36,544 nucleotides of DNA from positions 1 through 36,544 of IMG/VR virus record IMGVR_UViG_3300037782_000016. One strand, written 5' to 3'. The DNA is from a virus. Lineage: Duplodnaviria; Caudoviricetes. The first letter of the stretch is position 1. Each line of letters starts with the position of its first letter. Positions 5,378 to 16,300 of this stretch are shown piece by piece. The position numbers and the translations under genes were made by a program. Below the pieces are notes generated by a model. The model saw nothing but the letters and a program-made list of their open reading frames with translations, was not told the DNA's origin and made no database searches.

Positions 5378-5482
5378 ATTTTGTTTTTGTGTTTGCAATG
5401 GATATTACTTCATTCCGCTTATTATCTGTCTTTCGCGCTAGATATATCAAGTGGTTGCTGTTAGACGTAGTTGTGCAACATA

Positions 5483-5710
5483 CTAAGAAACTTCTTCCGT
5501 TTGTCGCCAAGTGTGCCAAGGGTAGTTAATCTCAAAGTATGCTATTGCACTTTCTCTATCTTGTTCGGTTACTTTTATCTCAAACTTTTCACCTTCATAA
5601 ATTCCCGTGAATAGAAAAATACGTTGCACAACATTGGCTAAACCAACATTTTTACCTAAGTTATCTGTTCGCCATTGTGCTGATTTTGATTCTCTTTCTT
5701 CTGTTGTCAT
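5483..5710 (-). CDS. Cassette-borne hypothetical protein
   Basis: 75-aa ORF that starts inside attC-like site 5621-5757 and ends next to the cassette boundary GTTGTGCAACAT (5470-5481). Confidence 0.65.
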   Translation of the reverse strand: MTTEERESKSAQWRTDNLGKNVGLANVVQRIFLFTGIYEGEKFEIKVTEQDRESAIAYFEINYPWHTWRQTEEVS

Positions 5711-5757
5711 ATCTAATCTGTTTAAAACGTTGTTTAGCCTTAGCCGTTGTGCTTCAT
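5621..5757 (+). mobile_element. attC-like site, array 1
   Basis: ACGTTGCACAAC, then GGCTAAACCAACATTTT pairing with AAAACGTTGTTTAGCC (one extra C in the left arm), then GTTGTGC at 5746. Confidence 0.75.
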
Positions 5758-6623
5758 TACCTCATAGCCTTTCTAATCTCAGCAACCGCAGTAGGGCTTC
5801 TCATTGCCGTCCAATGGTCTAGCAAGTCATCTTTTACCGTGCTGCTATCCGTGAAGGGTGTCGTGTCTAGTATTTCAACACCGCGTGGTAATACGTCCGT
5901 TGTGCTTCCGTTTCCTAGCCTCCCTTTCCCGTAGTTCTTAGTGTATTTACTCACAATTCCCGTTACCTCATCGCTTTCATTTATGACTACAATGGTCTTT
6001 CGGGCTATTCGATTAATGTCCCTCATATAGCTTCGATCAAAAACATCTTCGTCAACGTCTGGATGAAGCATTACGATGTTTTTAAAGACTTTCACTTTCT
6101 TATCCTCGTCAATGTTCTTTAGCATAGCCTCCAAAACTTGATTTCCCATTGAATGACAGAATAAATTGATTTCCCCTAAACAATCGGCCCTTTCCTCGAT
6201 TAAGTAAGTTACCATTCGATTGAAGATTTGCGCTAGGTTTGCGCCCGTTCTTTTAGCGTCCTGACTATCGTTGTGGTAGGCGTTGATTAACCTACCGATA
6301 CTGGACCAACTTTGCAGAATAAAATGGTCGCTTGGATAAAGCTCCCGAATCTTGTCGGCCATCTTAATTGACTTCTCAAAGGTATTCGCAAAGCCGTGAA
6401 TGAAGATGTTGAGCTTACTACCTGGTTTATCCTTCATAGACTTGTAGATGTCCGTAAACATCGTCTTAGTCGGGTAGTGGTTGATAGTGTTCTGGATTAA
6501 ATGCTCGTAGTCGTTCAGATCATCACCGCACTTTAGCACTTTGAATGATTGGGTTGCTGGCTCGATTCCTTTGCTTACTACTTTCCCGTTAAAGATTGTC
6601 CTATTGGTTAAAATGTGATTCAT
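5757..6623 (-). CDS. Alpha/beta hydrolase (DUF900-like esterase/lipase)
   Basis: IFIHGFAN oxyanion motif, LFCHSMGNQV nucleophile elbow, SWSS, NESD and a C-terminal DH. Confidence 0.85.
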   Translation of the reverse strand: MNHILTNRTIFNGKVVSKGIEPATQSFKVLKCGDDLNDYEHLIQNTINHYPTKTMFTDIYKSMKDKPGSKLNIFIHGFANTFEKSIKMADKIRELYPSDHFILQSWSSIGRLINAYHNDSQDAKRTGANLAQIFNRMVTYLIEERADCLGEINLFCHSMGNQVLEAMLKNIDEDKKVKVFKNIVMLHPDVDEDVFDRSYMRDINRIARKTIVVINESDEVTGIVSKYTKNYGKGRLGNGSTTDVLPRGVEILDTTPFTDSSTVKDDLLDHWTAMRSPTAVAEIRKAMR

Positions 6624-6674
6624 TGTTTTGGGTTTAGGTTTTAGTTATTAAATATTGTTGGGTAATTGTGCTAA

Positions 6675-6914
6675 TCAACAATCTGGACACTCTATCTCTA
6701 TTCCGAATACTTTGTCATGTAGTTTCTTTGAGCCGTTACAAGTTTGGCATAACTGTTCGCTTTGCCCCTGATTAGGTGTGGTTAATGCTTGTTCCTCGTT
6801 TCCAAGAAACTGATTTGTGCATAACCCAATGATTGCTTTTTCACGATTTGTTAGGCTTTCAGGCTTTATTCCGTACTCATCCTCTAATCTGTCAATAACC
6901 GTACATCTATTCAT
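6675..6914 (-). CDS. Hypothetical protein with C-terminal zinc finger
   Basis: CQTCNG...ECPDC. Confidence 0.6.
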   Translation of the reverse strand: MNRCTVIDRLEDEYGIKPESLTNREKAIIGLCTNQFLGNEEQALTTPNQGQSEQLCQTCNGSKKLHDKVFGIEIECPDC

Positions 6915-7280
6915 CTATTCTTCCTCCATTTCGTTAGCCGCTGCCAGCATTTCGTTGGCTGTTTGCCTATACCTTAACGCTATTTCTTTATAAGCCATAG
7001 CATCATTAACGTCCAAAGCATCATTGGAAAGCTTTTCGCGAATCTTAGATTGTTTAGCTAAAGCGTGTGAAGACAAATAAAGCTCATTAATATCCATGTA
7101 AACCATTGCAACTTCACACTCAGCATCATCGCCATAGCTGCCTACGCTAGTGCCGTCCTCGTTGTACCAATCGCCCTTATCGTCCTTGAAGGCTGTCTTG
7201 CCATCACTACTACGGCTGTCTTTCATTGTCCTTACCTCTCCGTTGTTCAGGCGGTAGGTCTTGTCTAGTTTTAGTTTCAT
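6915..7280 (-). CDS. Hypothetical protein
   Basis: 121-aa ORF coupled to its neighbours. Confidence 0.65.
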   Translation of the reverse strand: MKLKLDKTYRLNNGEVRTMKDSRSSDGKTAFKDDKGDWYNEDGTSVGSYGDDAECEVAMVYMDINELYLSSHALAKQSKIREKLSNDALDVNDAMAYKEIALRYRQTANEMLAAANEMEEE

Positions 7281-7702
7281 TGCTTCTCGTTTAGTTCGTT
7301 AATGTCAATTGCTAGTCCTGATTCGATGAGTCCGAAAACATCGAAGTGCCACTTTAATAGATTTTCTACTTGACAATAAGCCATTTCTAATGGCGAGTCA
7401 ATTTCATGCATCTCGCCATCAAACCCAGCTTCCATTATGGAGTCATCATCATTTATCTGAATGGTTGTCCAATCACTTAAAACATCAATTGGCACAAACC
7501 TCTCTCCCTTATGCTCAATCTCTTTGGTTAGGTCTGATAAGGGGCGTAGGATGGGTTTATAGTCTTCGTACAGTATTTCTCTATTTATAAATCCATTTGT
7601 GCAAGATTTTAAAATTTCAATTCTGTTTCTAAAGCCCCCCTTCAACCCATACGGAAGGTATGGCGCAAGGTCTTTAATCTCTAACTGTCTTTCTGTTTTC
7701 AT
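7277..7702 (-). CDS. Conserved phage hypothetical protein
   Basis: LAPYLPYGLK...KPILRPLSDLTKEI...WHFDVFGLIE. Start moved to ATG 7702 because a promoter lies at 7723-7754. Confidence 0.7.
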   Translation of the reverse strand: MKTERQLEIKDLAPYLPYGLKGGFRNRIEILKSCTNGFINREILYEDYKPILRPLSDLTKEIEHKGERFVPIDVLSDWTTIQINDDDSIMEAGFDGEMHEIDSPLEMAYCQVENLLKWHFDVFGLIESGLAIDINELNEKQ

Positions 7703-7722
7703 ACTCGTAATTTTGGTTTTGT

Positions 7723-7754
7723 CAAATATACAATAAACATTCTTTCGGGGCAAA
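7723..7754 (-). promoter_or_regulatory. Bacteroidota sigmaABfr-type promoter
   Basis: Minus strand TTTG-N20-TATATTTG. Confidence 0.75.
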
Positions 7755-7762
7755 CGTTAACC

Positions 7763-8362
7763 TTATAGCTTTAAAAGTGCCTCTTTTGTTCCCTTCCAAC
7801 TTCCCTTATTCCGCTGAGACCTTAAACGGTTCTCCTGCTTCTGCATAGTGCGGTAAACGTTTTCTAGCTTAGTCAAGCCGTTGGGTATCTCCAGTATTAT
7901 CCTTTCGGCTATGTCCCTGGCTCGTGCGTATTTTAACGCAACTTCCAGCCCTAAATCGATGACTATCTCGCAATCGGAGTCGTCTTTGTTGAAGTAGGCC
8001 ACTTCTAATATTTCCCTTGCCTCGTCATAAATCGCTGCATATTCTTTGTCCTGAACGTAGTCGGTGTGATGCGTTCCCGTTTCGTCTTTCGTGTAATGCG
8101 TTGCCGTTGCGTGGTCGCGCCCAATCAAGGCAGCAATATGACTTGCTGGTAACTTCTCGCAGAATGATACACTCGCACTCGTGAACGCTTGTCGTACCCT
8201 TATTATTGGTCTGTCCCGGACGCTAGACTTCAACATCTCTATGCTTATTCCCTGAGTTTCACAGAGCGTTTCCCTCATTTCCAGAACCGCTTTTAGTTCC
8301 CGAATGTACTTTACGCTCCTATCCTTTGCGTCCTCAATTATTGTTTTTTCTTGCTTTTTCAT
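7763..8362 (-). CDS. DnaA C-terminal-like HTH DNA-binding protein
   Basis: RDRPIIRVRQ...IAALIGRDHATATHY matches the DnaA_C GRDHxTVxH signature. Confidence 0.75.
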   Translation of the reverse strand: MKKQEKTIIEDAKDRSVKYIRELKAVLEMRETLCETQGISIEMLKSSVRDRPIIRVRQAFTSASVSFCEKLPASHIAALIGRDHATATHYTKDETGTHHTDYVQDKEYAAIYDEAREILEVAYFNKDDSDCEIVIDLGLEVALKYARARDIAERIILEIPNGLTKLENVYRTMQKQENRLRSQRNKGSWKGTKEALLKL

Positions 8363-8810
8363 TTTCCCGTACTTGTTTTTTTAAATGGTTAATGTCGTTG
8401 ATGTATTCCTTCATCGTGTATTGGTCGGTCGGAATGTGAAACCCTAACGCCTGCTTTAATGCGCTTAATGTTTCGTGGAGTTGATTCTTTTCTTGGTCTC
8501 GATCCTGCTCTCTGGCTTCTCGTTGTTTCAGTAAAGCATTGGCAATGGTCTTTTCACTTGAAACGCTGCTCATTTTACCTTTGACGATTTGCAGAACCTC
8601 TCGCTTGTCATCTTCTAACGCCCTGAGATATTCCCGGTCCTTTAGCCACTCGGTCAACATTTCTTCTTCAATCTTTTCCCAAGCCTTCAACAGCCTTTTC
8701 GGAAACAGAAACAAAAACCGCCCGGATCCCAAATGCCTGATGTCGCCTGTCTCGATAATCCTGGAGTAAGTCTTTACCGTTAACTCGTCTATGCTGTCGA
8801 TTATTTTCAT
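8334..8810 (-). CDS. Hypothetical protein, possibly tail-assembly-chaperone-like
   Basis: DSIDELTVKTYSRIIETGDIRHL...LGFHIPTDQYTMKEY; function is an inference. Confidence 0.5.
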   Translation of the reverse strand: MKIIDSIDELTVKTYSRIIETGDIRHLGSGRFLFLFPKRLLKAWEKIEEEMLTEWLKDREYLRALEDDKREVLQIVKGKMSSVSSEKTIANALLKQREAREQDRDQEKNQLHETLSALKQALGFHIPTDQYTMKEYINDINHLKKQVRENEKARKNNN

Positions 8811-8813
8811 TTC

Positions 8814-8850
8814 AATATTGTTGCATTAGTGCGCTATATGCCATTGTTAG
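8814..8850 (+). mobile_element. attI-like array-leading site, copy 1
   Basis: AATATTGTTGCATTAGTGCGCTATATGCCATTGTTAG, 31/37 identical to 13555-13591; ends in the GTT core of the first cassette. Confidence 0.65.
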
Positions 8851-8857
8851 TGGCAAT

Positions 8858-9154
8858 TTAAAGCCACTTCATTTTTTTATTATACCTCAAATTGTAAGCA
8901 CATTTACTTCCTATTGGTGGTATTCCTTTCCATATAATATAAGGTATGCCAGCATCATCGTAAGTTACTGATTCACATTCTCGAATATTTCCTAATTCAT
9001 CAATAAATCTCAAGCCATTAACATCTTTACCAAAGTCATTCTCAGTAATAAAACTGCCACTAACAACACCTAAAGTTGCATTGCCATTGTCGGCTGTGTG
9101 TTGAACTTGTGGGTTTTCTTTGTGCATAGTTTTTAATTTGAAAGTTTCGTGCAT
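8858..9154 (-). CDS. Cassette-borne hypothetical protein
   Basis: Stop directly abuts GTTAGTGGCAAT (8846-8857); the start (9154 or 9127) lies in attC 9053-9195. Confidence 0.6.
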   Translation of the reverse strand: MHETFKLKTMHKENPQVQHTADNGNATLGVVSGSFITENDFGKDVNGLRFIDELGNIRECESVTYDDAGIPYIIWKGIPPIGSKCAYNLRYNKKMKWL

Positions 9155-9195
9155 TTTAATGGCAACGCACTTTAGCCAAACCGTTAGCGGTAATT
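9053..9195 (+). mobile_element. attC-like site, array 2 #1
   Basis: ACTGCCACTAAC-AACAC-CTAAAGTTGCATTGCCATT ... AATGGCAACGCACTTTAG-CCAAACC-GTTAGCGGTAATT; one extra T in the left arm. Confidence 0.8.
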
Positions 9196-9426
9196 CTTTG
9201 GTGGTTTGCTATTCGGGCATTTATCATTATCACAATATCTTTTGCCAAATAACATTAAAAACCCACCTCTTGGCATCGTGCTACCACAGTTGGTACAAAA
9301 ATGTCCTACGCCTTCTCTCATAACTCTACATAAAGGCGGTTTAGGGGGTTCTGGAGTAGAATTACCGCTAACAACACCTATATGTAATACCTTATTTTCT
9401 TCTTGGTTGTTCTGTTCTTTACTCAT
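9184..9426 (-). CDS. Cassette-borne zinc-ribbon protein
   Basis: FCTNCG...YCDNDKC. The stop TAA lies within the GTTAG core; the start lies in attC 9360-9495. Confidence 0.65.
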   Translation of the reverse strand: MSKEQNNQEENKVLHIGVVSGNSTPEPPKPPLCRVMREGVGHFCTNCGSTMPRGGFLMLFGKRYCDNDKCPNSKPPKNYR

Positions 9427-9495
9427 TGTTTTAGTCTTTTAAGTTAGTGTAGTAATTTATCAATGTCGGAACTACACATAGCCAAAACGTTATCC
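9360..9495 (+). mobile_element. attC-like site, array 2 #2
   Basis: AATTACCGCTAAC (perfect 13-bp complement of 9183-9195)-AACAC-CTATATGTAATACC ... GGAACTACACATAG-CCAAAAC-GTTATCC. Confidence 0.75.
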
Positions 9496-9822
9496 CTACT
9501 GAAACAAATCAATTTGCCCATCACGACCAAATTTAGGCTGTTTTGGGTTTTCAGTCGAGTAAACGTGTTCCGCTTTTCCGTACATTCCCTTCGCTGTCTT
9601 TTCGGTTTTGAAGAGAAGCCCCTCGTTGTATAGGTCGGTTATCGCCCGTCTAATGCTCGTTATCGGACATTCGTTGATTCCGTAGATTTTCCAAGCCTCT
9701 GATGCTGTTAGGTTCTTTTTCGATCGGAATATCTCCAGCACTTTGTCTCGCTGTCTTTGGGCCTTTCCTTGACTTTCGGCTAAGGTTCTTCCGACTTCCT
9801 TGTTTGTGTTGTAGTAACTCAT
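9496..9822 (-). CDS. Winged-HTH DNA-binding protein
   Basis: VLEIFR...LTASEAW...ITSIRRAITDLYNEGLL. Confidence 0.65.
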   Translation of the reverse strand: MSYYNTNKEVGRTLAESQGKAQRQRDKVLEIFRSKKNLTASEAWKIYGINECPITSIRRAITDLYNEGLLFKTEKTAKGMYGKAEHVYSTENPKQPKFGRDGQIDLFQ

Positions 9823-9865
9823 ATTTTTGGTTTTGGTTAATCAATTACTTCCCGTATTAAGCCGT

Positions 9866-10255
9866 TCATTGGTCTGTTTTTACGCTTATTTTTATGACGC
9901 AATACTTTTCCTTGTAACTTTTCAATTCAGTTAGCAAGTCATGCCCACCTATTGATAAATAGCTATCGTTATAAGTTCCGTAAGTGTATGAAGAATAATT
10001 GTATGATTCAGATGTAAAATCCGCATCAATAGAACCAAACAATTTCTTTAGCCAGCCCTCCTTTATTTCTTGTTCTGTTTTCTTTTCATCAGAAATGTAA
10101 TAACCTACGGACACCTCGGATTCGTACAAATCAAATATCGCTCTAAATTTCTTCACTAAATCAATCCTCTTATAACCGTCAACTAATTTGACAGTCTCGA
10201 AATCGGATAACCAGCTTGACTCAATAAATCCACTAAATGTAAATTCCTTAATCAT
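9866..10255 (-). CDS. Hypothetical protein with its own promoter
   Basis: 129-aa AT-rich ORF with a TATATTTG box just upstream. Confidence 0.7.
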   Translation of the reverse strand: MIKEFTFSGFIESSWLSDFETVKLVDGYKRIDLVKKFRAIFDLYESEVSVGYYISDEKKTEQEIKEGWLKKLFGSIDADFTSESYNYSSYTYGTYNDSYLSIGGHDLLTELKSYKEKYCVIKISVKTDQ

Positions 10256-10278
10256 AACTTGTAATTTGGTTTAGACTT

Positions 10279-10286
10279 CAAATATA
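10279..10286 (-). promoter_or_regulatory. Bacteroidota -7 promoter box
   Basis: TATATTTG on the minus strand, 23 nt before the 10255 ATG. Confidence 0.65.
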
Positions 10287-10312
10287 AACACTTTCACGAT
10301 ATAAACGTCAAT

Positions 10313-10690
10313 TTAACAAAAATAATCGTCAATCATTTGCTTTGCCATATCGAAGCCCACCGCGAATCCACCCGTGTAACCCTCTTTTCGTAGCCTCTCG
10401 TGAACGCTGTGTTGTTTTTGAGGGTGTTCTGACTTCGAGATGCTTCCGTCCTTTAGAAAGGGGTTGTTTGATTCCGTTTTTACTTCTATAAACAAACCGT
10501 TGTAACCTTTCCGAGCTGAAAAGACGAATATATCTGGGTGTCCGCCCTCGTGTGGAAGCCTTATCGCTTTAGCCGCCTTAGATTGACCCATGGTTAACTT
10601 GACCCCGTTCGGGTCGCTCTGGACGATTACTTTCGGCTGGACCAGTTCAATGTACTGGATTATCTGCTTATGTAGCTGCTTCTCGTTCAT
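10313..10690 (-). CDS. VRR-NUC / PD-(D/E)xK nuclease (resolvase-like)
   Basis: EKQLHKQI...GHPDIFV...GLFIEVKT...QH...LRKEGY. Likely start MNEKQL at 10690. Confidence 0.85.
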   Translation of the reverse strand: MNEKQLHKQIIQYIELVQPKVIVQSDPNGVKLTMGQSKAAKAIRLPHEGGHPDIFVFSARKGYNGLFIEVKTESNNPFLKDGSISKSEHPQKQHSVHERLRKEGYTGGFAVGFDMAKQMIDDYFC

Positions 10691-10874
10691 TACTTTCTTC
10701 CTTCCAGTCTCCATCGGCGTCTAAATGTTTTGGTGGCCATCCGTGTTTCCTGACCATTAGCATCCGCATAAATCGAGACCAAAACAATAGTAACACTTGA
10801 AACAAAAAAGCCCCGACTATGCAGAATCCACAAAACACCCAAAAGCCACTAAACATAAATTCTATTAGTTCCAT
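10668..10874 (-). CDS. Small membrane protein
   Basis: Single long hydrophobic segment; HGWPPKHLDADGD tail. Confidence 0.6.
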   Translation of the reverse strand: MELIEFMFSGFWVFCGFCIVGAFLFQVLLLFWSRFMRMLMVRKHGWPPKHLDADGDWKEESNEREAAT

Positions 10875-10876
10875 AA

Positions 10877-11254
10877 TTAATACGGAAAGTCATCATCACC
10901 CATGCCGTCGCCATCATCAATCGGCTCGGCTGTCTTTACCTCAGACTTACTCCCTAAAAACTCAAATGCACTTACCCTAACTTTCGAGTAGTACCTTTCC
11001 TCGCCCTTCTCGTTCCGCTGTTGCCCCTCCAGGTAAACCTTATCCCCTTTGCTCAGGTATTTGGCGAGAATTTCGCCTACATTACCCCAAGCCTCGATCG
11101 AGTGCCAGGTGGTATCTTCTACTTTCTCGCCTGACTTGTTTTTGTAGCGTTCGGTTGTTGCCAGCGTAAACTTGCATACTTTTGTGTTTCCTACGTCCGT
11201 GATTTCGGGGTCTTTCCCCAAGTGTCCGATTAACATTATCTTGTTCATATCCAA
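10877..11254 (-). CDS. ssb: Single-stranded DNA-binding protein
   Basis: MNKIMLIGHLGKDPE...FTLATTE...TTWH...LSKGDKVYLEG, with acidic DDDFPY tail. Confidence 0.95.
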   Translation of the reverse strand: MDMNKIMLIGHLGKDPEITDVGNTKVCKFTLATTERYKNKSGEKVEDTTWHSIEAWGNVGEILAKYLSKGDKVYLEGQQRNEKGEERYYSKVRVSAFEFLGSKSEVKTAEPIDDGDGMGDDDFPY

Positions 11255-11430
11255 ATGTATTCTGCTAGTCTGTAAATTGCTTCTGAAAGCTCTAAACCAG
11301 CCAACACCATAAAAGTGTAGCCTATTTTGATGTTTCCCTTTTTATTTTCCTCTTTCCCAATGTAGGTTAACGCTGCGGCTATTACCGCTGGGTCGCTGAT
11401 TAAGCTGATTACTTCTAATGATTGTTCCAT
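11245..11430 (-). CDS. Small membrane-associated hypothetical protein
   Basis: 61 aa with two hydrophobic patches. Confidence 0.5.
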   Translation of the reverse strand: MEQSLEVISLISDPAVIAAALTYIGKEENKKGNIKIGYTFMVLAGLELSEAIYRLAEYIWI

Positions 11431-11446
11431 AACTACTGATTATTAA

Positions 11447-11716
11447 TTAAACTTTCGGCTTCTGCTGCCCTAAATACTTTTCTGTTACCTCCACCAACTC
11501 GCCAAAGGCATCAATTCGCTCAATGGCTGGATCGGGGATTTCAATATTCAGCTCCTTTTCGATTTTCATTGCCGTCTCCAGGATGTCGAGACTGTCCATT
11601 CCGATGTCGCCTTTTAACGTGGACGAGTCGTTATAATCCTCCATATCGGCATCCGACAATCCCATCACTTCTTTGATAACTTCTTTAACTACTTCCCTTG
11701 TGTTTGATTCGCTCAT
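11447..11716 (-). CDS. acpP: Acyl carrier protein
   Basis: Acidic 89-aa protein with DIGMDSLDILETAMKIEKELNIEIPD (DSL phosphopantetheine Ser motif and ACP helix II/III pattern). Confidence 0.9.
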   Translation of the reverse strand: MSESNTREVVKEVIKEVMGLSDADMEDYNDSSTLKGDIGMDSLDILETAMKIEKELNIEIPDPAIERIDAFGELVEVTEKYLGQQKPKV

Positions 11717-11946
11717 AGCTCTATGATTAGATTAATTTCATTACATTTAACCATTGGCATATCAGGATATGAAATTTGAGCATATTCGATTTTTGATACG
11801 GTAACACCGTACTGCTTTTCGTACTTCAAAATTAGACTAGATATATGCTGCTCTAGTTCGCGTTTCTCATTACGCGCCTTTTCAATTTCTTTTTCAAACC
11901 CAATATTGCTTTCTGAAGCCTTATCAGTTGTTTTGTTATTGCTCAT
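11713..11946 (-). CDS. Hypothetical protein
   Basis: 77-aa coupled ORF. Confidence 0.6.
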   Translation of the reverse strand: MSNNKTTDKASESNIGFEKEIEKARNEKRELEQHISSLILKYEKQYGVTVSKIEYAQISYPDMPMVKCNEINLIIEL

Positions 11947-12665
11947 GCCTTTAGTTTTTCGTTCAAAATCTTTGCCGCCATTTCTACCCTAGCGGTTAAT
12001 AGGTCTTTGTCCTCCTGAGGGACTGTAAAGCTTATGTTTGTAATCGCTGGATATTTACTCTCTTTAGGAATCAAAGGTAGCTGCTCAGGCTGTGAAAAGC
12101 TAATCCAAGCGTAAGTGTTCAGGTTGTCCACCATTGCCTCAGCGTAATCAACTACCTCATTGAAGTATTTCCGTTCGACCCCGTGAATGTATAGAGCCAC
12201 ATCATCAACTCCAGCTAGTATCGCATTGCTAACAAGCTGCCAGTAATACTCAGGCTTTTTTTCTTTCAAGTTCTCGTGCGCTATTACTGATTCCGCGCAC
12301 ATATCGCTTAACTCGCAGAATGAACGCAAGGTATAAGGGCTTTTAACATCTGCCACCTCTGTTTCACTTACCATGTCGGGCGCACCGCTCCAGGGTAGTG
12401 TTGGATGTTCGTACCTTTCCTTGTGTACCTCTTTCCACTTAATATCCAAATGCTTTTCAAAGAAAAACAACTCCATTAGGTTACCCCAGCTTGTGGGACG
12501 TGCCGTTGTTTCATTATCCAGTTGGCAGCCTAACTTAGATTCCCAAACTTTTTCCTGAATGTAAGTCTCAAAAGGTTTGCCGGTGTTCTCAATACTGAAC
12601 GCACCCCTACCTTTACTCATTAGCCTGTAAATTTGGCTGCTCGTGAATTTCCCTACCCTACTCAT
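11943..12665 (-). CDS. YqaJ/lambda-exonuclease-like recombination nuclease
   Basis: RVGKFTSS...WGNLME...SGAPD...DVKSP...YYWQL. Confidence 0.85.
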   Translation of the reverse strand: MSRVGKFTSSQIYRLMSKGRGAFSIENTGKPFETYIQEKVWESKLGCQLDNETTARPTSWGNLMELFFFEKHLDIKWKEVHKERYEHPTLPWSGAPDMVSETEVADVKSPYTLRSFCELSDMCAESVIAHENLKEKKPEYYWQLVSNAILAGVDDVALYIHGVERKYFNEVVDYAEAMVDNLNTYAWISFSQPEQLPLIPKESKYPAITNISFTVPQEDKDLLTARVEMAAKILNEKLKA

Positions 12666-13314
12666 TCTCGTATGTTTTTAGTTCTTCCAATGCTTTTGCG
12701 TAGTGGTTTTCCTCTTCCATTCCAATCACTCGCTGAATATGTGCGTAGCGTTTACTCGGGATGTTGGCTTCCACCTCTTCAAATTTCTCTCTCAATTCCT
12801 TTAGCGTTACCACTTTTCGGGTACGGTTAAACGCCATTGTATCCTTTCGGTTCAGATCACGCCCAAACAAAGCCCCAAAATGTTCCGCAGCATCCTTAAT
12901 AGCGTAACTCTTTGCAGCTGGCAATGCTTTCATTACCGCATCTTGCTTGACGGCTGTAAGGTCGCTTGCCGCCTTTCCTTTGTCAGTTTGTATTCCGACC
13001 GCACCTACCCCATCGTGATAGTTCCATTGACCCGTGATTGGGTCTAAGTAGTGAAGTCTTACGGAAACAGTAACCGAATTAAATAGCTGCTGATAGTCCT
13101 TTACCTCAACTCGCCATTGTTGAAATATCCTATCCAGTAAAAACTCAATCTTATCAATCGGGATGTATTTCACTCCCTTAGCGAAAGGGTGCTGTTTGAT
13201 AAACTTCTGTATAGGCGGCTCGTTCGTTATCGCCTTTAATTGGTCATACTTAAACGCCTCTTTAGGGTCTAATTGTAGTTCTTGAATCTTTGGTAAGTTC
13301 TTCTTCTCACTCAT
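12658..13314 (-). CDS. Rad52/Sak-like single-strand annealing protein
   Basis: YIPIDKIEFLLDRIF...DGVG...AKSYAIKDAAEHFG...GRDL, next to the exonuclease. Likely start MSEKK at 13314. Confidence 0.8.
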   Translation of the reverse strand: MSEKKNLPKIQELQLDPKEAFKYDQLKAITNEPPIQKFIKQHPFAKGVKYIPIDKIEFLLDRIFQQWRVEVKDYQQLFNSVTVSVRLHYLDPITGQWNYHDGVGAVGIQTDKGKAASDLTAVKQDAVMKALPAAKSYAIKDAAEHFGALFGRDLNRKDTMAFNRTRKVVTLKELREKFEEVEANIPSKRYAHIQRVIGMEEENHYAKALEELKTYENE

Positions 13315-13319
13315 AACTT

Positions 13320-13541
13320 TTAGTTTTTCCCGAAGATCGGGGTTAATACTTGTATTTCCTTTTCGGTTATCGGTTTGCAATTTACCTCATCCATAGTTAA
13401 ATCGCAAGTTATTAGCTGGCCTTTTTCGTAGGTCAACTCGACTTCCAGTTCTCCGTTTCGGAAGCGTTCCGTAAAATAGTCGTCGTGGTAATACTCCTTG
13501 ACTTTCTCAAATCCTAAACTCTCTAGTTTTTTCTTTGTCAT
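13320..13541 (-). CDS. Hypothetical protein
   Basis: Likely start MTKKKLESLGF at 13541; the track's longer N-terminus merely reads through the attI-like site. Confidence 0.6.
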   Translation of the reverse strand: MTKKKLESLGFEKVKEYYHDDYFTERFRNGELEVELTYEKGQLITCDLTMDEVNCKPITEKEIQVLTPIFGKN

Positions 13542-13554
13542 ACTTTTTGGTTTT

Positions 13555-13591
13555 AATATTGTTGCACTGATGCGTCTTATGCCATTGTTAG
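13555..13591 (+). mobile_element. attI-like array-leading site, copy 2
   Basis: AATATTGTTGCACTGATGCGTCTTATGCCATTGTTAG; homolog of 8814-8850. Confidence 0.65.
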
Positions 13592-13598
13592 CCACCAT

Positions 13599-13799
13599 TT
13601 AAAGTAAATCCTCGTGGTCTCTAATTGAACGTTCTAAATATGCCATTCTACTGCTAACTTTTGCTTGTACTTCTTGGTACGTTTCTTTCTTCAAAGGTTG
13701 GTTGTTATTGAGTTCGTTAAACTTGTTCCAGAAGTCAACCAATGATTCAAGTTCTTCCTGTCTTGTTTTAATGTGGTTTTCAATTTGCGCTACATTCAT
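13599..13799 (-). CDS. Cassette-borne hypothetical protein
   Basis: Fills the span between GTTAGCCACCATTT (13587) and AAACGGTGGCTAAC (13803-13816). Confidence 0.65.
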   Translation of the reverse strand: MNVAQIENHIKTRQEELESLVDFWNKFNELNNNQPLKKETYQEVQAKVSSRMAYLERSIRDHEDLL

Positions 13800-13802
13800 A
13801 AT

Positions 13803-13937
13803 AAACGGTGGCTAACAAAATGTAACACACATAACCCGTCAGCCTTTTAAAAGCGTATGTGTGAGTTTGTAATTCAGTTCTTTTATCGGTGGTCTGTGAT
13901 GGCTACGATGTGTTACACAAACCGTTATGCCCCATTT
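13803..13937 (+). mobile_element. attC-like site, array 3 #1
   Basis: GGTGGCTAAC-AAAA-TGTAACACA ... TGTGTTACA-CAAACC-GTTATGC. Confidence 0.8.
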
Positions 13938-14481
13938 ACTTCACCACAGTTTCAAACACTATCTGTTTTGGCAGCACCGCCTTTGTTAAGTACACACTTG
14001 AAAACGGTGGGTTAAGCTTTGGCTTCGGGTCGCCGTAATCCTTAAAGTAGCTTATACGCTTGTTGAAGTACATTATTTCAAAGTCATTTTCTGCAAACAT
14101 TTTAAACCTCTTCTGGCTTTCAAACAACCCTACAACTCCAACAAGCATAGCAAACGGCTTACCTATTTCAAACAGTCGTGCAAACACTTCGCCCTTCAAG
14201 CTATAAGGCGGATTACTAATTATGTACTCAATGGTAGTTGGTGGCTCGTATGTAAAAAAGTCTTCACCGTTTCCAATGTGTGTATTTAAAACCTTGTGTC
14301 CTGCTGTTGTTAGCATTTTTACAAAGTTGCTTTCATTAGTATCAAACGGGCACCATATCTCACTATTAGGTTTTAAATACCTTAACAAAGGCTCAATAGC
14401 GTAATTAGGCGTATAAAACTCATCATTAGGGTTCAGCTCTTTTGTAACTGCTTCTTTGTTTGTTATTAAGTCTAATTTCAT
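13936..14481 (-). CDS. Putative DNA amino-(N6-adenine) methyltransferase, cassette-borne
   Basis: DEFYTP, IWCPFD, GEDFF and IISNPPYS (NPPY catalytic motif). Confidence 0.8.
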   Translation of the reverse strand: MKLDLITNKEAVTKELNPNDEFYTPNYAIEPLLRYLKPNSEIWCPFDTNESNFVKMLTTAGHKVLNTHIGNGEDFFTYEPPTTIEYIISNPPYSLKGEVFARLFEIGKPFAMLVGVVGLFESQKRFKMFAENDFEIMYFNKRISYFKDYGDPKPKLNPPFSSVYLTKAVLPKQIVFETVVK

Positions 14482-14490
14482 ATAATTAAA

Positions 14491-14634
14491 AAACGGGGCA
14501 TAACACTAAATATAAAACATACAGGTGTTTAGCCAAAATTATGCAGTTGTGCCATTAATTAAGTTTGTAGCGTACAGGTTGGCTACTGCTTTCTATTCCT
14601 GTACGTTTCATATTATTTACGTTAGCCACCATTT
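14491..14634 (+). mobile_element. attC-like site, array 3 #2
   Basis: AAACGGGGCATAAC-ACTAA-ATATAAAACATACAGG ... CCTGTACGTTTCATAT-TATTTAC-GTTAGCC. Confidence 0.8.
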
Positions 14635-14795
14635 ACGACAGCATATAATAAATCTCTACCTATTTTAGCCCAAGTTGATGGTTCGTTTGGATGGTTTTGC
14701 CATTGGTCTTTAGGTATGAACATTGCTAATCCAACAATGCTAAATACAAACAATAGGGTTATAAACATCCAAACTATTAAACATAATCCTTTCAT
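14622..14795 (-). CDS. Cassette-borne small membrane protein
   Basis: Likely start MKGLCLIVW at 14795; one long TM segment; stop inside the GTTAG core. Confidence 0.6.
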   Translation of the reverse strand: MKGLCLIVWMFITLLFVFSIVGLAMFIPKDQWQNHPNEPSTWAKIGRDLLYAVVNGG

Positions 14796-14799
14796 AATA

Positions 14800-14933
14800 A
14801 AACGGTGGCTAACAAAGTATATAGCACATAGCCTGTTAGCCATTTTTAAAACTATATGCGGTTATTAAATTATTTTCTCTTTTAATTAGGTCTGTGAGTG
14901 GTTACGTGCCATATACAAACCGTTAGCACCAAC
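14800..14933 (+). mobile_element. attC-like site, array 3 #3
   Basis: AAACGGTGGCTAAC-AAA-GTATATAGCACATAGCC ... GGTTACGTGCCATATAC-AAACC-GTTAGCA. Confidence 0.8.
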
Positions 14934-14934
14934 A

Positions 14935-15129
14935 CTAATCTTCAAGTTCATCCTCAAACTCTTCTGCTATATCCTTACACAACTTGATAAGCTTTTTTAT
15001 GTACGGCTTTTCGTATTGGCTTGCTTCTTCTTCAATTCCTTTTACACCACCTTCATTTTGTAGTGCTTCGTAACATTCTTCTAAATCTTGGTAGGTATTT
15101 TCAAACCTACAATAACTCATATTTCCCAT
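14935..15129 (-). CDS. Conserved small phage protein, cassette-borne
   Basis: MGNMSYCRFENTYQDL motif; followed on the + strand by only a truncated attC start (GCACAAC at about 15163-15169). Confidence 0.7.
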   Translation of the reverse strand: MGNMSYCRFENTYQDLEECYEALQNEGGVKGIEEEASQYEKPYIKKLIKLCKDIAEEFEDELED

Positions 15130-15175
15130 TTTATTAAGTTTTAGTTATTCAATCCGTACTATGCACAACAAGCCA

Positions 15176-15556
15176 TCACAACTCAATCTCAATCTTTCCA
15201 AGACCACCGCAAGTTGAGCAGTCCATCGTTTCAAATATTTCTTCTCCGTAAACGTTATTCCCACCGCCTACAATCGCGCGGCTTCCCGTGAAGTGTTCCG
15301 CGTGTCCGTGTCCGTTGCAGTCCTCGCAGTTAATCAATAGACGTTTTTTCATTGGTTCTCCAGTCCCAATAACCTTCGCGTTTAGGTAATCGGATTCTTC
15401 GCTATCCTGATTCTCTAAGGCTTCGTTTATTTCGGCTAAATCATTAATTCCCATACTTGCAAAAATGTCGATTGCTGATAATTGACTGACGTAAATAGTA
15501 AAGTGGTTGTCGTGCTTGTCGCTTATCTGGTTGAAATCAAACTTGTAAATTTTCAT
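15176..15556 (-). CDS. Protein with DnaJ-type CxxCxGxG zinc finger
   Basis: CEDCNGHG...CSTCGGLG. Confidence 0.7.
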   Translation of the reverse strand: MKIYKFDFNQISDKHDNHFTIYVSQLSAIDIFASMGINDLAEINEALENQDSEESDYLNAKVIGTGEPMKKRLLINCEDCNGHGHAEHFTGSRAIVGGGNNVYGEEIFETMDCSTCGGLGKIEIEL

Positions 15557-15576
15557 ACTCTAATTTTTTGGTTGAC

Positions 15577-15607
15577 CAAAGATAATACTGTTTTGGTAAA
15601 TTGCAAA
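15577..15607 (-). promoter_or_regulatory. Bacteroidota sigmaABfr-type promoter
   Basis: Consensus TTTG-N19-TATCTTTG on the minus strand. Confidence 0.8.
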
Positions 15608-15613
15608 CGTTTT

Positions 15614-16300
15614 TCACGGTAATGCGTCAAATATGGTTGATTGCCTTACGTTTTGTTTTCGAGAAACTTCAAGTGCTGTTTCTAGTATCGTTCTACCAGC
15701 TTCGTAGTCTACCAGGTTTCGAGCTATTTTGTCTTTTCTTTGATTCCCTTTGTATTTTTTAAAATCGTAGTCGTGAAATGTGCATAAATTCTGAAACTCA
15801 TTTTTACCTGTTCCTACTTTGCAATATCTATTTGAAATTTTATTTGGTAGGTTAAAGTTTGTCCAGTAATAATGCCTATCCCTTTTTTTGGGAGAAAACA
15901 TAGGTTCGTAATACGATATTACATTTTCAACACAGTATTTGCCTTTGAAAAAATTATTTAAAAATATAATCTCTTGCCATAACTTCATATCTGGATAACT
16001 GGCTTTCGACTGTCTTTCCCCTTCACCGGTGTTAGTTTTTCTAAGCCTTGAATGTGTCGGACATGGAGGGCTACTCCAAATAAAATCAAACTTTTGGTAA
16101 TGGTCCAGTAGGTATTGGTGTGCATCTTCGATCAAAACTTTATCGTTCGGGAATCTCTCTTGATACAACCTAGCTAATTCCGGATCTAATTCTACCGCAG
16201 TAACATCAATTTTAATACCTGCTTCTTTACCTACCTCATCCCACTTGTAACGATTGCCGCCTAAACAAGCGTATAGGTTTAATATTTTGTACTCTCTCAT
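15614..16300 (-). CDS. DNA (cytosine-5) methyltransferase
   Basis: LNLYACLGG (motif I), AVELD, WSSPPCPTHS (motif IV PC), VENV (motif VI). Confidence 0.88.
   Translation of the reverse strand: MREYKILNLYACLGGNRYKWDEVGKEAGIKIDVTAVELDPELARLYQERFPNDKVLIEDAHQYLLDHYQKFDFIWSSPPCPTHSRLRKTNTGEGERQSKASYPDMKLWQEIIFLNNFFKGKYCVENVISYYEPMFSPKKRDRHYYWTNFNLPNKISNRYCKVGTGKNEFQNLCTFHDYDFKKYKGNQRKDKIARNLVDYEAGRTILETALEVSRKQNVRQSTIFDALP

Follow-up and report, generated by a model that had tools for sequence, protein, structure and literature searches.

Clusters of attC sites lacking an integron integrase (CALINs) are known from lytic phages, a phage of Bacteroidota included. The available text of Qi et al. 2023 (PMC9892861) reports 17 phage CALINs in 10,705 genomes, among them that of P12002L with its methyltransferase cassettes; it treats the sites as ordinary attC, lists two of them for P12002L and makes 'divergent directions' its sole remark on orientation. 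There, IntI1 recombined five of six sites, the exception being P12002L_attC1, for which no integration was verified. On the bacterial side, the accessible part of the IntegronFinder 2 paper gives few integrons in Bacteroidetes, with one complete integron added. Here we describe three loci in a tailed phage (Duplodnaviria; Caudoviricetes), IMG/VR record IMGVR_UViG_3300037782_000016; "the window" denotes the whole analysed stretch of 36,544 nucleotides. As in the phage CALINs in the available text of Qi et al. 2023, small genes and DNA methyltransferases accompany clusters of attC-like sites, and the lytic-type phage has no integrase. We propose, with a probability of about 0.7, that the three loci are six mobile cassettes of an integron-like system common to Bacteroidota and phages, on which a borrowed tyrosine recombinase without the IntI insertion likely acts at G|TT.

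As in integrons, the crossover lies at G|TT, a cassette is a body with its downstream hairpin, the cores are complementary across the gene, and tandem arrays stand beside a tyrosine recombinase that branches near IntI. Unlike in integrons, the spacers are 5/7-8 (5/6 at the aadA7 attC site, as its boxes are assigned), the ends match over 13-14 nt with a fixed wobble at position 11, and the enzyme is without the I2 insertion; the host enzyme is co-directional with its own array, and the phage genes are antisense. The system works like an integron, yet departs from one in its enzyme, spacers and orientation. Whereas integrase-less phage attC clusters are known, neither antisense cassettes with hairpin-encoded starts nor an insertion-less array recombinase turned up in the literature searched, from which most subscription journals were missing. 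The available parts of Qi et al. 2023 (PMC9892861) mention no insertion-less recombinase, hairpin-encoded N-termini or cassette indels, and in those of Smyshlyaev et al. 2021 (PMC8138268) no insertion-less member of the integron-like subgroup is tied to cassette arrays.

A geometry detector for the pattern YAAC, 5 nt, paired arms, 6-8 nt and GTTR (strict score of at least 10) found exactly six attC-like sites in the window, all on the + strand and 121-132 nt from core to core. Five have 5/7 spacers and one, H0, has 5/8. In all six, R'' ends in YAAC, R' begins with GTTR and R'' is complementary to the first core of its cassette: 12-14 of 14 nt match between each R'' and the cassette start, compared with only 4-7 nt between R'' and R' of the same site. 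Array 1 consists of one cassette, array 2 of two and array 3 of three; by this detector arrays 2 and 3 would count as CALINs (at least two attC sites, no neighbouring integrase), while Rfam at the gathering threshold gave 0 matches in the window. In 100 dinucleotide shuffles, the mean was 0.32 sites, none with a matching end, against six in the window, all with a matching end upstream. A looser test (a GTTR k-mer and an inverted copy 80-1500 nt away) gave 7 at k = 10 versus 0.45 ± 0.70 in 200 shuffles (maximum 3), and 8 at k = 9 versus 2.2, with a shuffle maximum of 8. Weak folding energies might suggest inverted repeats that are regulatory, or due to chance, in place of recombination sites. 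We give this practically no credence, as none of the 100 shuffles reproduced the pattern, and it is already contradicted by an exact 392-bp indel and by homology breaks at the cores, both described below.

A sequence-only reading of the same DNA had described three arrays with six intact hairpins of 135-145 bp, and had paired the ends across each gene. All five pairs of ends that it quoted lie at their given positions, and the three loci and six sites were recovered. The lengths were overestimated, and "intact" was too strong, since the bottom strand of H0 alone folds better than shuffles; array 1 is a single cassette, and array 3 ends at G14922, which leaves ORF 14935-15129, without matching ends, outside. 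Model R1, built from the six sites as that reading had advised, found seven sites in P12002L, including P12002L_attC1. Right of ORF 14935-15129, a lone core-like sequence (15150-15175, AAC end at 15169) has no paired arms; it is unlike the core at 14922 and is possibly a decayed cassette end. The features of the three arrays are as follows.

5471 to 5746, + strand: cassette 1a (TT, body, AAC, hairpin, G), a single-cassette array with an HNH gene on one side and a DUF900 hydrolase gene on the other; ends match over 12 of 14 nt
5483 to 5710, - strand: 75-aa open reading frame (ORF) of cassette 1a; first ATG within H0; no family match; homologue in viral locus L277, 47% identical over residues 27-75
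5626 to 5752, + strand: attC-like site H0; spacers 5/8, the geometry of P12002L_attC1
8804 to 8846, + strand: left end of array 2 and candidate docking site, with G|TT at its end (G = 8846); homologue at 13545-13587
8847 to 9183, + strand: cassette 2a; ends match over 13 of 14 nt
8858 to 9154, - strand: 98-aa ORF of cassette 2a; start within H1
9058 to 9189, + strand: attC-like site H1; spacers 5/7
9184 to 9489, + strand: cassette 2b; found whole with its hairpin in other contigs, between unrelated flanks
9184 to 9426, - strand: 80-aa cysteine-rich ORF of cassette 2b (phrog_36989); start within H2, stop codon within the GTTA core
9366 to 9495, + strand: attC-like site H2; spacers 5/7
13545 to 13587, + strand: left end of array 3, a candidate docking site ending at G|TT (G = 13587)
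13588 to 13924, + strand: cassette 3a; ends match over 13 of 14 nt
13599 to 13799, - strand: 66-aa ORF of cassette 3a; no family match
13810 to 13930, + strand: attC-like site H3; spacers 5/7
13925 to 14621, + strand: cassette 3b
13936 to 14481, - strand: 181-aa probable DNA methyltransferase gene of cassette 3b (phrog_799, E 5e-29)
14498 to 14627, + strand: attC-like site H4; spacers 5/7
14622 to 14922, + strand: cassette 3c; 14-nt ends identical to those of cassette 3a
14622 to 14843, - strand: ORF of cassette 3c; 73 aa from an ATG in H5, or 57 aa from the ATG at 14795
14807 to 14928, + strand: attC-like site H5; spacers 5/7; last crossover of array 3 at G14922

The DUF900 alpha/beta hydrolase gene (5757-6623, E 2.7e-21) lies directly right of H0 and is not bracketed by matching ends.

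No close relative of the phage was found (Rad52-like gene: 20 loci of at most 57% identity, with no R1 match below E 0.2; HTH gene: 6 loci of at most 48% identity; a 158-aa gene: 0 loci), and mobility was therefore followed via single cassettes instead. GenBank phages searched with window sequences gave only weak methyltransferase and hairpin matches. Among the loci reached in this way, L228 and L229, both of which hold a homologue of cassette 2b, are 99.9% identical, with 1 mismatch in each of two blocks of 841 and 1685 nt, and differ by one 392-bp insert that starts with TT, contains an antisense ORF of 87 aa and ends with AAC, hairpin and G. Further left, the two diverge again at a G|TT. 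Gain or loss of the exact unit thus occurs at G|TT in relatives.

The homologues of individual cassettes gave the same picture. We retrieved 37 loci with homologues of the 80-aa gene of cassette 2b. Of these, 23 align with array 2 as DNA, and in 15 of the 23 the alignment starts at 9177-9184, at the G|TT of 9183. L226 matches 9182-9491, the entire cassette and its hairpin, amid unrelated neighbours; together with the 392-bp indel, this bears out the earlier proposal that single-gene cassettes are exchanged at G|TT. The H2 hairpin is also retained in L215 and L225 (match 9179-9484) and in L239 (9276-9493, to the contig end). Homology between the methyltransferase cassette 3b and L099 covers 13921-14506 only: it stops at both cores, with the same 14-nt ends and another left neighbour. 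Recombined partners share no spacer identity past GTT. Methyltransferase homologues were found at 80 loci; 26 were dropped for want of an ATG-started ORF over the match, and 43 distinct ones remained. Because just 8 of these 43 were flagged with matched cassette ends (35 were not), the family often occurs outside cassettes. Matching of ends across a gene, on which the sequence-only reading had relied, does not by itself show which hairpin travels with the gene; the 392-bp indel does.

We take the + strand to be the top strand of the sites, by analogy with host arrays and from the 392-bp indel. All six window cassette genes are then antisense to site polarity, in contrast to the sense genes of integrons, which are expressed from Pc at attI; they run in the same direction as the phage's own genes. 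The earlier description of this DNA did not mention the antisense orientation. Among 50 viral cassettes in 29 loci, 44 were antisense, 0 sense and 6 unclear or without an ORF, whereas the 21 cassettes of 10 genome loci comprised 14 sense, 6 antisense and 1 unclear; two phage-like contigs within metagenome-assembled genomes (MAGs), with 6 antisense cassettes, were counted apart. Calls in a pattern-selected set, with P12002L, L001 and the window among its members, were 38 antisense and 4 sense. In L021, which is Polaribacter phage P12002L, the seven R1 sites, and more by the detector, lie at 14488-14641 and 29992-40885, with methyltransferase genes antisense between them. A phage gene has its stop codon 7-13 nt from the start of each array; the antisense layout would thus let the leftward phage operon express the cassettes by read-through.

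Two other accounts of this layout were rejected. Position 11 of the ends is A on the left and C on the right in 58 of 62 distinct verified sites. Phage and host cassettes agree in the polarity of this asymmetry, so that the genes in phage cassettes are not host bodies inverted between two cores. A reading in which the - strand is the top strand, each hairpin being lent to the next gene, is contradicted by the 392-bp indel and by the movement of cassette 2b with H2.

The genes of cassettes 1a, 2a and 2b have their first ATG in the hairpin of their own cassette, and the frame continues through arm and core; the hairpin thus encodes an N-terminus of 19-27 residues that reaches the V of the core. 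L224 and L228-L230 match 9177/9184-9376 only, with the same body as cassette 2b and a different hairpin, and L099 likewise has the body of cassette 3b with another hairpin; conversely, H2 is 88-90% identical to hairpins in L027 and L083, which bear unrelated bodies. An alignment of 25 cassette 2b proteins (24 of 44 homologues plus the query) showed a constant body behind an N-terminus of a few to about 80 residues, joined at a core-encoded V-S-G/S motif. Similarly, the body of cassette 2a stands behind different N-termini in P0047-P0050, and in P0052 the 2a N-terminus (88% over a third of the query) precedes a DUF3850 (PF12961) body. These patterns suggest that hairpin and body move together recently and re-assort at the AAC core over longer times. 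Such slower hairpin exchange at the AAC end would give a body a new N-terminus, with recombination of the top strand or the birth of cassettes as candidate routes.

We then turn to the enzyme. The sequence-only reading had recognised no tyrosine recombinase in the phage, and this held: PF00589 gave 0 matches in a record that is 100% complete (control 14/14), and a phage-type recombinase of the same cassette system, used as query, gave 0 in the window at E<=1. P0001, a tyrosine recombinase of 383 aa in the MAG locus L090, is followed after 66 nt by the first G|TT of a sense array. Scanning up to 1.5 kb downstream of the enzyme, we found a matched first cassette 45-184 nt after the stop codon in 14 of 30 host loci of the P0001 family and in 0 of 6 XerC/D loci; L289, a 17-kb stretch behind the L180 enzyme, which had scored negative at 1.5 kb, contains seven sites over 13 kb. 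Among 151 sampled Bacteroidota genomes, 25 have a relative of P0001 at E<=1e-55. As a query, P0001 retrieved nothing from viral contigs and, from GenBank phages, nothing at 1e-40 and 48 weak integrase matches at 1e-20.

Phages also encode such enzymes. In array-bearing viral records, PF00589 was present in 3 of 33 (1 of 5 among those at least 90% complete), in each case at the left, first-core end of an antisense array and pointing away from it. Of 21 viral loci with the phage enzyme, 11 (7 distinct) have a verified opposite-strand site upstream, with 15 sites upstream and 1 downstream in all. Recombinases of 275-290 aa make up a phage clade (L255, L256, L257, L258-L278), complete phage-borne platforms, and in most of these loci an AT-alternating G|TT site precedes the start codon by about 50 nt. 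Another tyrosine recombinase inside the array-linked clade is paired with an IS91-family transposase (L091:1855-3905), a link to rolling-circle elements that make single-stranded DNA.

The array-linked enzymes are about 40 aa short of the IntI insertion: P0001 has 40 residues where VchIntIA has 82, and the distance from the catalytic R to HxxR is 90-92 aa in all 30 enzymes with both motifs read (25 host and 3 of 16 phage enzymes, plus IS91-linked and unassigned ones), compared with 132-134 aa in three IntI and 96-98 aa in six XerC/D. They share with XerC/XerD a simple tyrosine recombinase fold without insertion, and their best solved relatives are archaeal XerA. They differ from XerC/XerD in scoring below the cut-offs (P0001: 180 versus 335 bits for NCBIfam XerC and 175 versus 330 for XerD) and in forming a separate clade, apart from the XerC/D of the same genomes. 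A FastTree of 54 proteins with XerC/D as the root placed the host and phage enzymes in one group (0.75), adjacent to three IntI (0.90). The site family is thus linked to an insertion-less recombinase in hosts and other phages, which makes this enzyme, and not IntI, the likely trans-acting enzyme for the phage cassettes, contrary to the IntI-like recombinase first proposed. Supply by the host in trans, the other part of that proposal, is one of two candidate sources, as Bacteroidota genomes encode the enzyme and other phages do too.

If a canonical host IntI moved ordinary integron cassettes (a CALIN), the cores would be acceptable, as they loosely fit RYYYAAC/GTTRRRY, and TIGR02249 does outscore the XerC/D models for both the host and the phage enzyme. 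Both nevertheless fall below its cut-off (185 bits, in two stretches, for P0001 and 163 for the phage enzyme versus 265). A detector for canonical geometry (5/6 spacers, an extra base at L'' position 4) found one site behind each of two IntI genes and 0 in the window. Genome G024 encodes a true IntI, but the site behind it is canonical, whereas arrays of 5/7-8 sites begin beside the insertion-less enzyme. According to the available text of PMC9892861, IntI1 can use phage attC sites, one Bacteroidota phage site included; P12002L_attC1, without verified integration, has the 5/8 geometry and is the only site of window type among the six tested there. We consider a canonical IntI improbable. In G024, which belongs to the Bacteroidota group, L287 (G024:C32) carries both a divergent true IntI with a canonical site and an insertion-less enzyme with its own array.

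The hairpins themselves were compared across the 62 distinct verified sites, where the right spacer is 7 nt (30) or 8 nt (32), the L-box columns covary, and bottom-strand G.T wobbles occur at fixed positions, chiefly position 11 of the ends. Because the detector selects for paired arms, only variation within arm pairs counts as evidence of pairing; the fixed register and the covariation nonetheless support arm pairing. We considered the possibility that an Xer-like enzyme recombines double-stranded DNA at short core-plus-L-box sites, the hairpins being translation-start modules. The missing I2 insertion, the weak folding of the sites and the three genes that start in a hairpin would all suit such a scheme. 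Yet the arms covary and carry their bottom-strand wobbles at fixed positions over the 62 sites, and host sense arrays retain the same hairpins without a coding role. Moreover, partners in typical double-strand recombination are expected to share spacer identity, and the exchanged partners have none beyond GTT. This scheme appears slightly less probable still than a canonical IntI.

The unit is TT-body-AAC-hairpin-G on the + strand with its gene on the other strand. In the mechanism that we favour, the - (bottom) strand would fold as single-stranded DNA and be cut in AA|C, and cassettes would leave as circles and enter again at another core or an array's left end. The enzyme could come from a host chromosomal array, in which the recombinase is followed by sense cassettes, or from a co-infecting phage whose antisense array has a member of this enzyme family encoded at its end; the phage itself may have lost its recombinase gene or never had one.

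Several observations weigh against this mechanism. Of the twelve strand folds of the single sites, only that of the H0 bottom strand was better than shuffles (z -2.2); the other 11 ranged from z -1.5 to +1.0, and the minimum-energy fold of H2 is without the long stem. With extended ends, the bottom strand had the lower energy in five of six sites, with one tie, and from core to core in four of six, differences that are mostly not significant against shuffles. Enzyme and sites are tied by neighbourhood alone, the tree includes three IntI only and has modest support, and a true IntI occurs in one of four array-enzyme genomes checked. In the available part of Escudero 2020, the I2 helix is needed to dock extrahelical bases and to block second strand exchange; because it is reported as required, an insertion-less enzyme would need another solution. 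A second P12002L site did recombine with IntI1 in the available text of PMC9892861. Viral loci reached via cassette proteins or the phage enzyme are biased to antisense genes. No close relative, and hence no empty site for the phage's own arrays, was found. Scored with a matrix built on 11 host primary sites, the left end of array 1 ranks 299 of 784 and those of the other two arrays 431 and 510; all that the three ends share is a short TA motif, found at 104 of 784 GTTR sites. Finally, although phage DNA is present in pond metagenomes, contigs of six pond runs, one of them possibly the source, contained no circle, excision joint or variant array of the phage; contigs drop rare forms, and runs X4-X6 hold under a fifth of the phage words. 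The circles that the sequence-only reading had expected from cross-gene matching were thus absent from all six contig sets. A joint 9195-9353 in X2 and some loose ends were entertained as excision products and rejected, as they come from other replicons with the same site types.

Alternatively, the cassettes may be relics, inherited from an ancestor with its own recombinase and now fixed, changing only by homologous recombination via the Rad52-like annealing protein of the phage. Several of the points above, namely the lack of variants in the six pond runs, the poor fold of H2 and the dissimilarity of the left ends to host primary sites, would be expected if so; in addition, a Rad52/Sak-like gene adjoins array 3, and other phages have the enzyme at the array end where this phage does not. 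On the other hand, the six cassettes use three separate loci, and each still has 12-14 of 14 matched end bases together with both cores, a sign of recent insertion or selection. Furthermore, 30 of 33 array-bearing viral records are without PF00589 (4 of 5 of those at least 90% complete), so that integrase-less arrays are the common state. The relic account has the same origin as the mobile-cassette reading and differs in present activity only; we regard it as unlikely, while the strongest of the alternatives.

The left ends of arrays 2 and 3 are candidate docking sites. They form a 60-nt repeat of 78% identity ending at G|TT and, like 9 of the 11 host primary sites, have TAT six bases ahead of GTT. 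Mini-hairpins at the left ends were not significant, and the repeat pattern gave 0 matches in viral contigs. The 9-mer ATATTGTTG occurs in the window only at 6652, 8815 and 13556, always on the + strand and immediately upstream of a start codon on the - strand. At 6652, neither a GTT nor a cassette stands at the corresponding position. The 9-mer could be a leader motif or an unused docking site.

More tentatively, with somewhat less than an even chance of being right, Bacteroidota and phages may run a sister integron system with an I2-less recombinase and folded 5/7-8 sites. Phages would keep an antisense pool of cassettes, often without the enzyme, hijack that of the host or of a neighbour to swap methyltransferases and small effectors, and build proteins by hairpin exchange at the AAC core. 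If true, the sister system would show in living form the stage that preceded IntI and offer a route for the birth of cassettes, with the body and hairpin exchanges as a handle on how cassettes are made. Bacteroidota are seen as nearly integron-free and phage clusters as rare; a variant site and enzyme would mean that a common gene-capture system has escaped notice in a major phylum and in the phages of that phylum. The insertion-less enzyme would test whether the I2 helix is truly required for hairpin recombination, a question central to the origin of the integrase. For the phage, the benefit would be targeted swapping of methyltransferases and accessory genes without carrying a recombinase.

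The phage genome is complete at 36,544 bp (100% by the record's own estimate) and has a 127-nt terminal repeat; its terminase, portal, capsid, tail, SSB, Rad52-like and nuclease genes are all on the - strand. Its host is probably a member of Bacteroidota, since 11 of the 14 genomes that match the 23-nt site motif bear such titles (one other is Neomarinimicrobiota). PADLOC gave one weak type II methyltransferase match in the window (E 0.0017). A second methyltransferase, of the C5 type (PF00145), is encoded at 15614-16300, outside the cassettes, and an acyl carrier protein (PF00550, E 1.7e-9; phrog_5934) at 11447-11716. A 35-nt repeat at 7696-7730 and 15550-15584 contains a TAnnTTTG-like element on the - strand, which we take to be the Bacteroidota promoter motif; the two copies are presumably early promoters.

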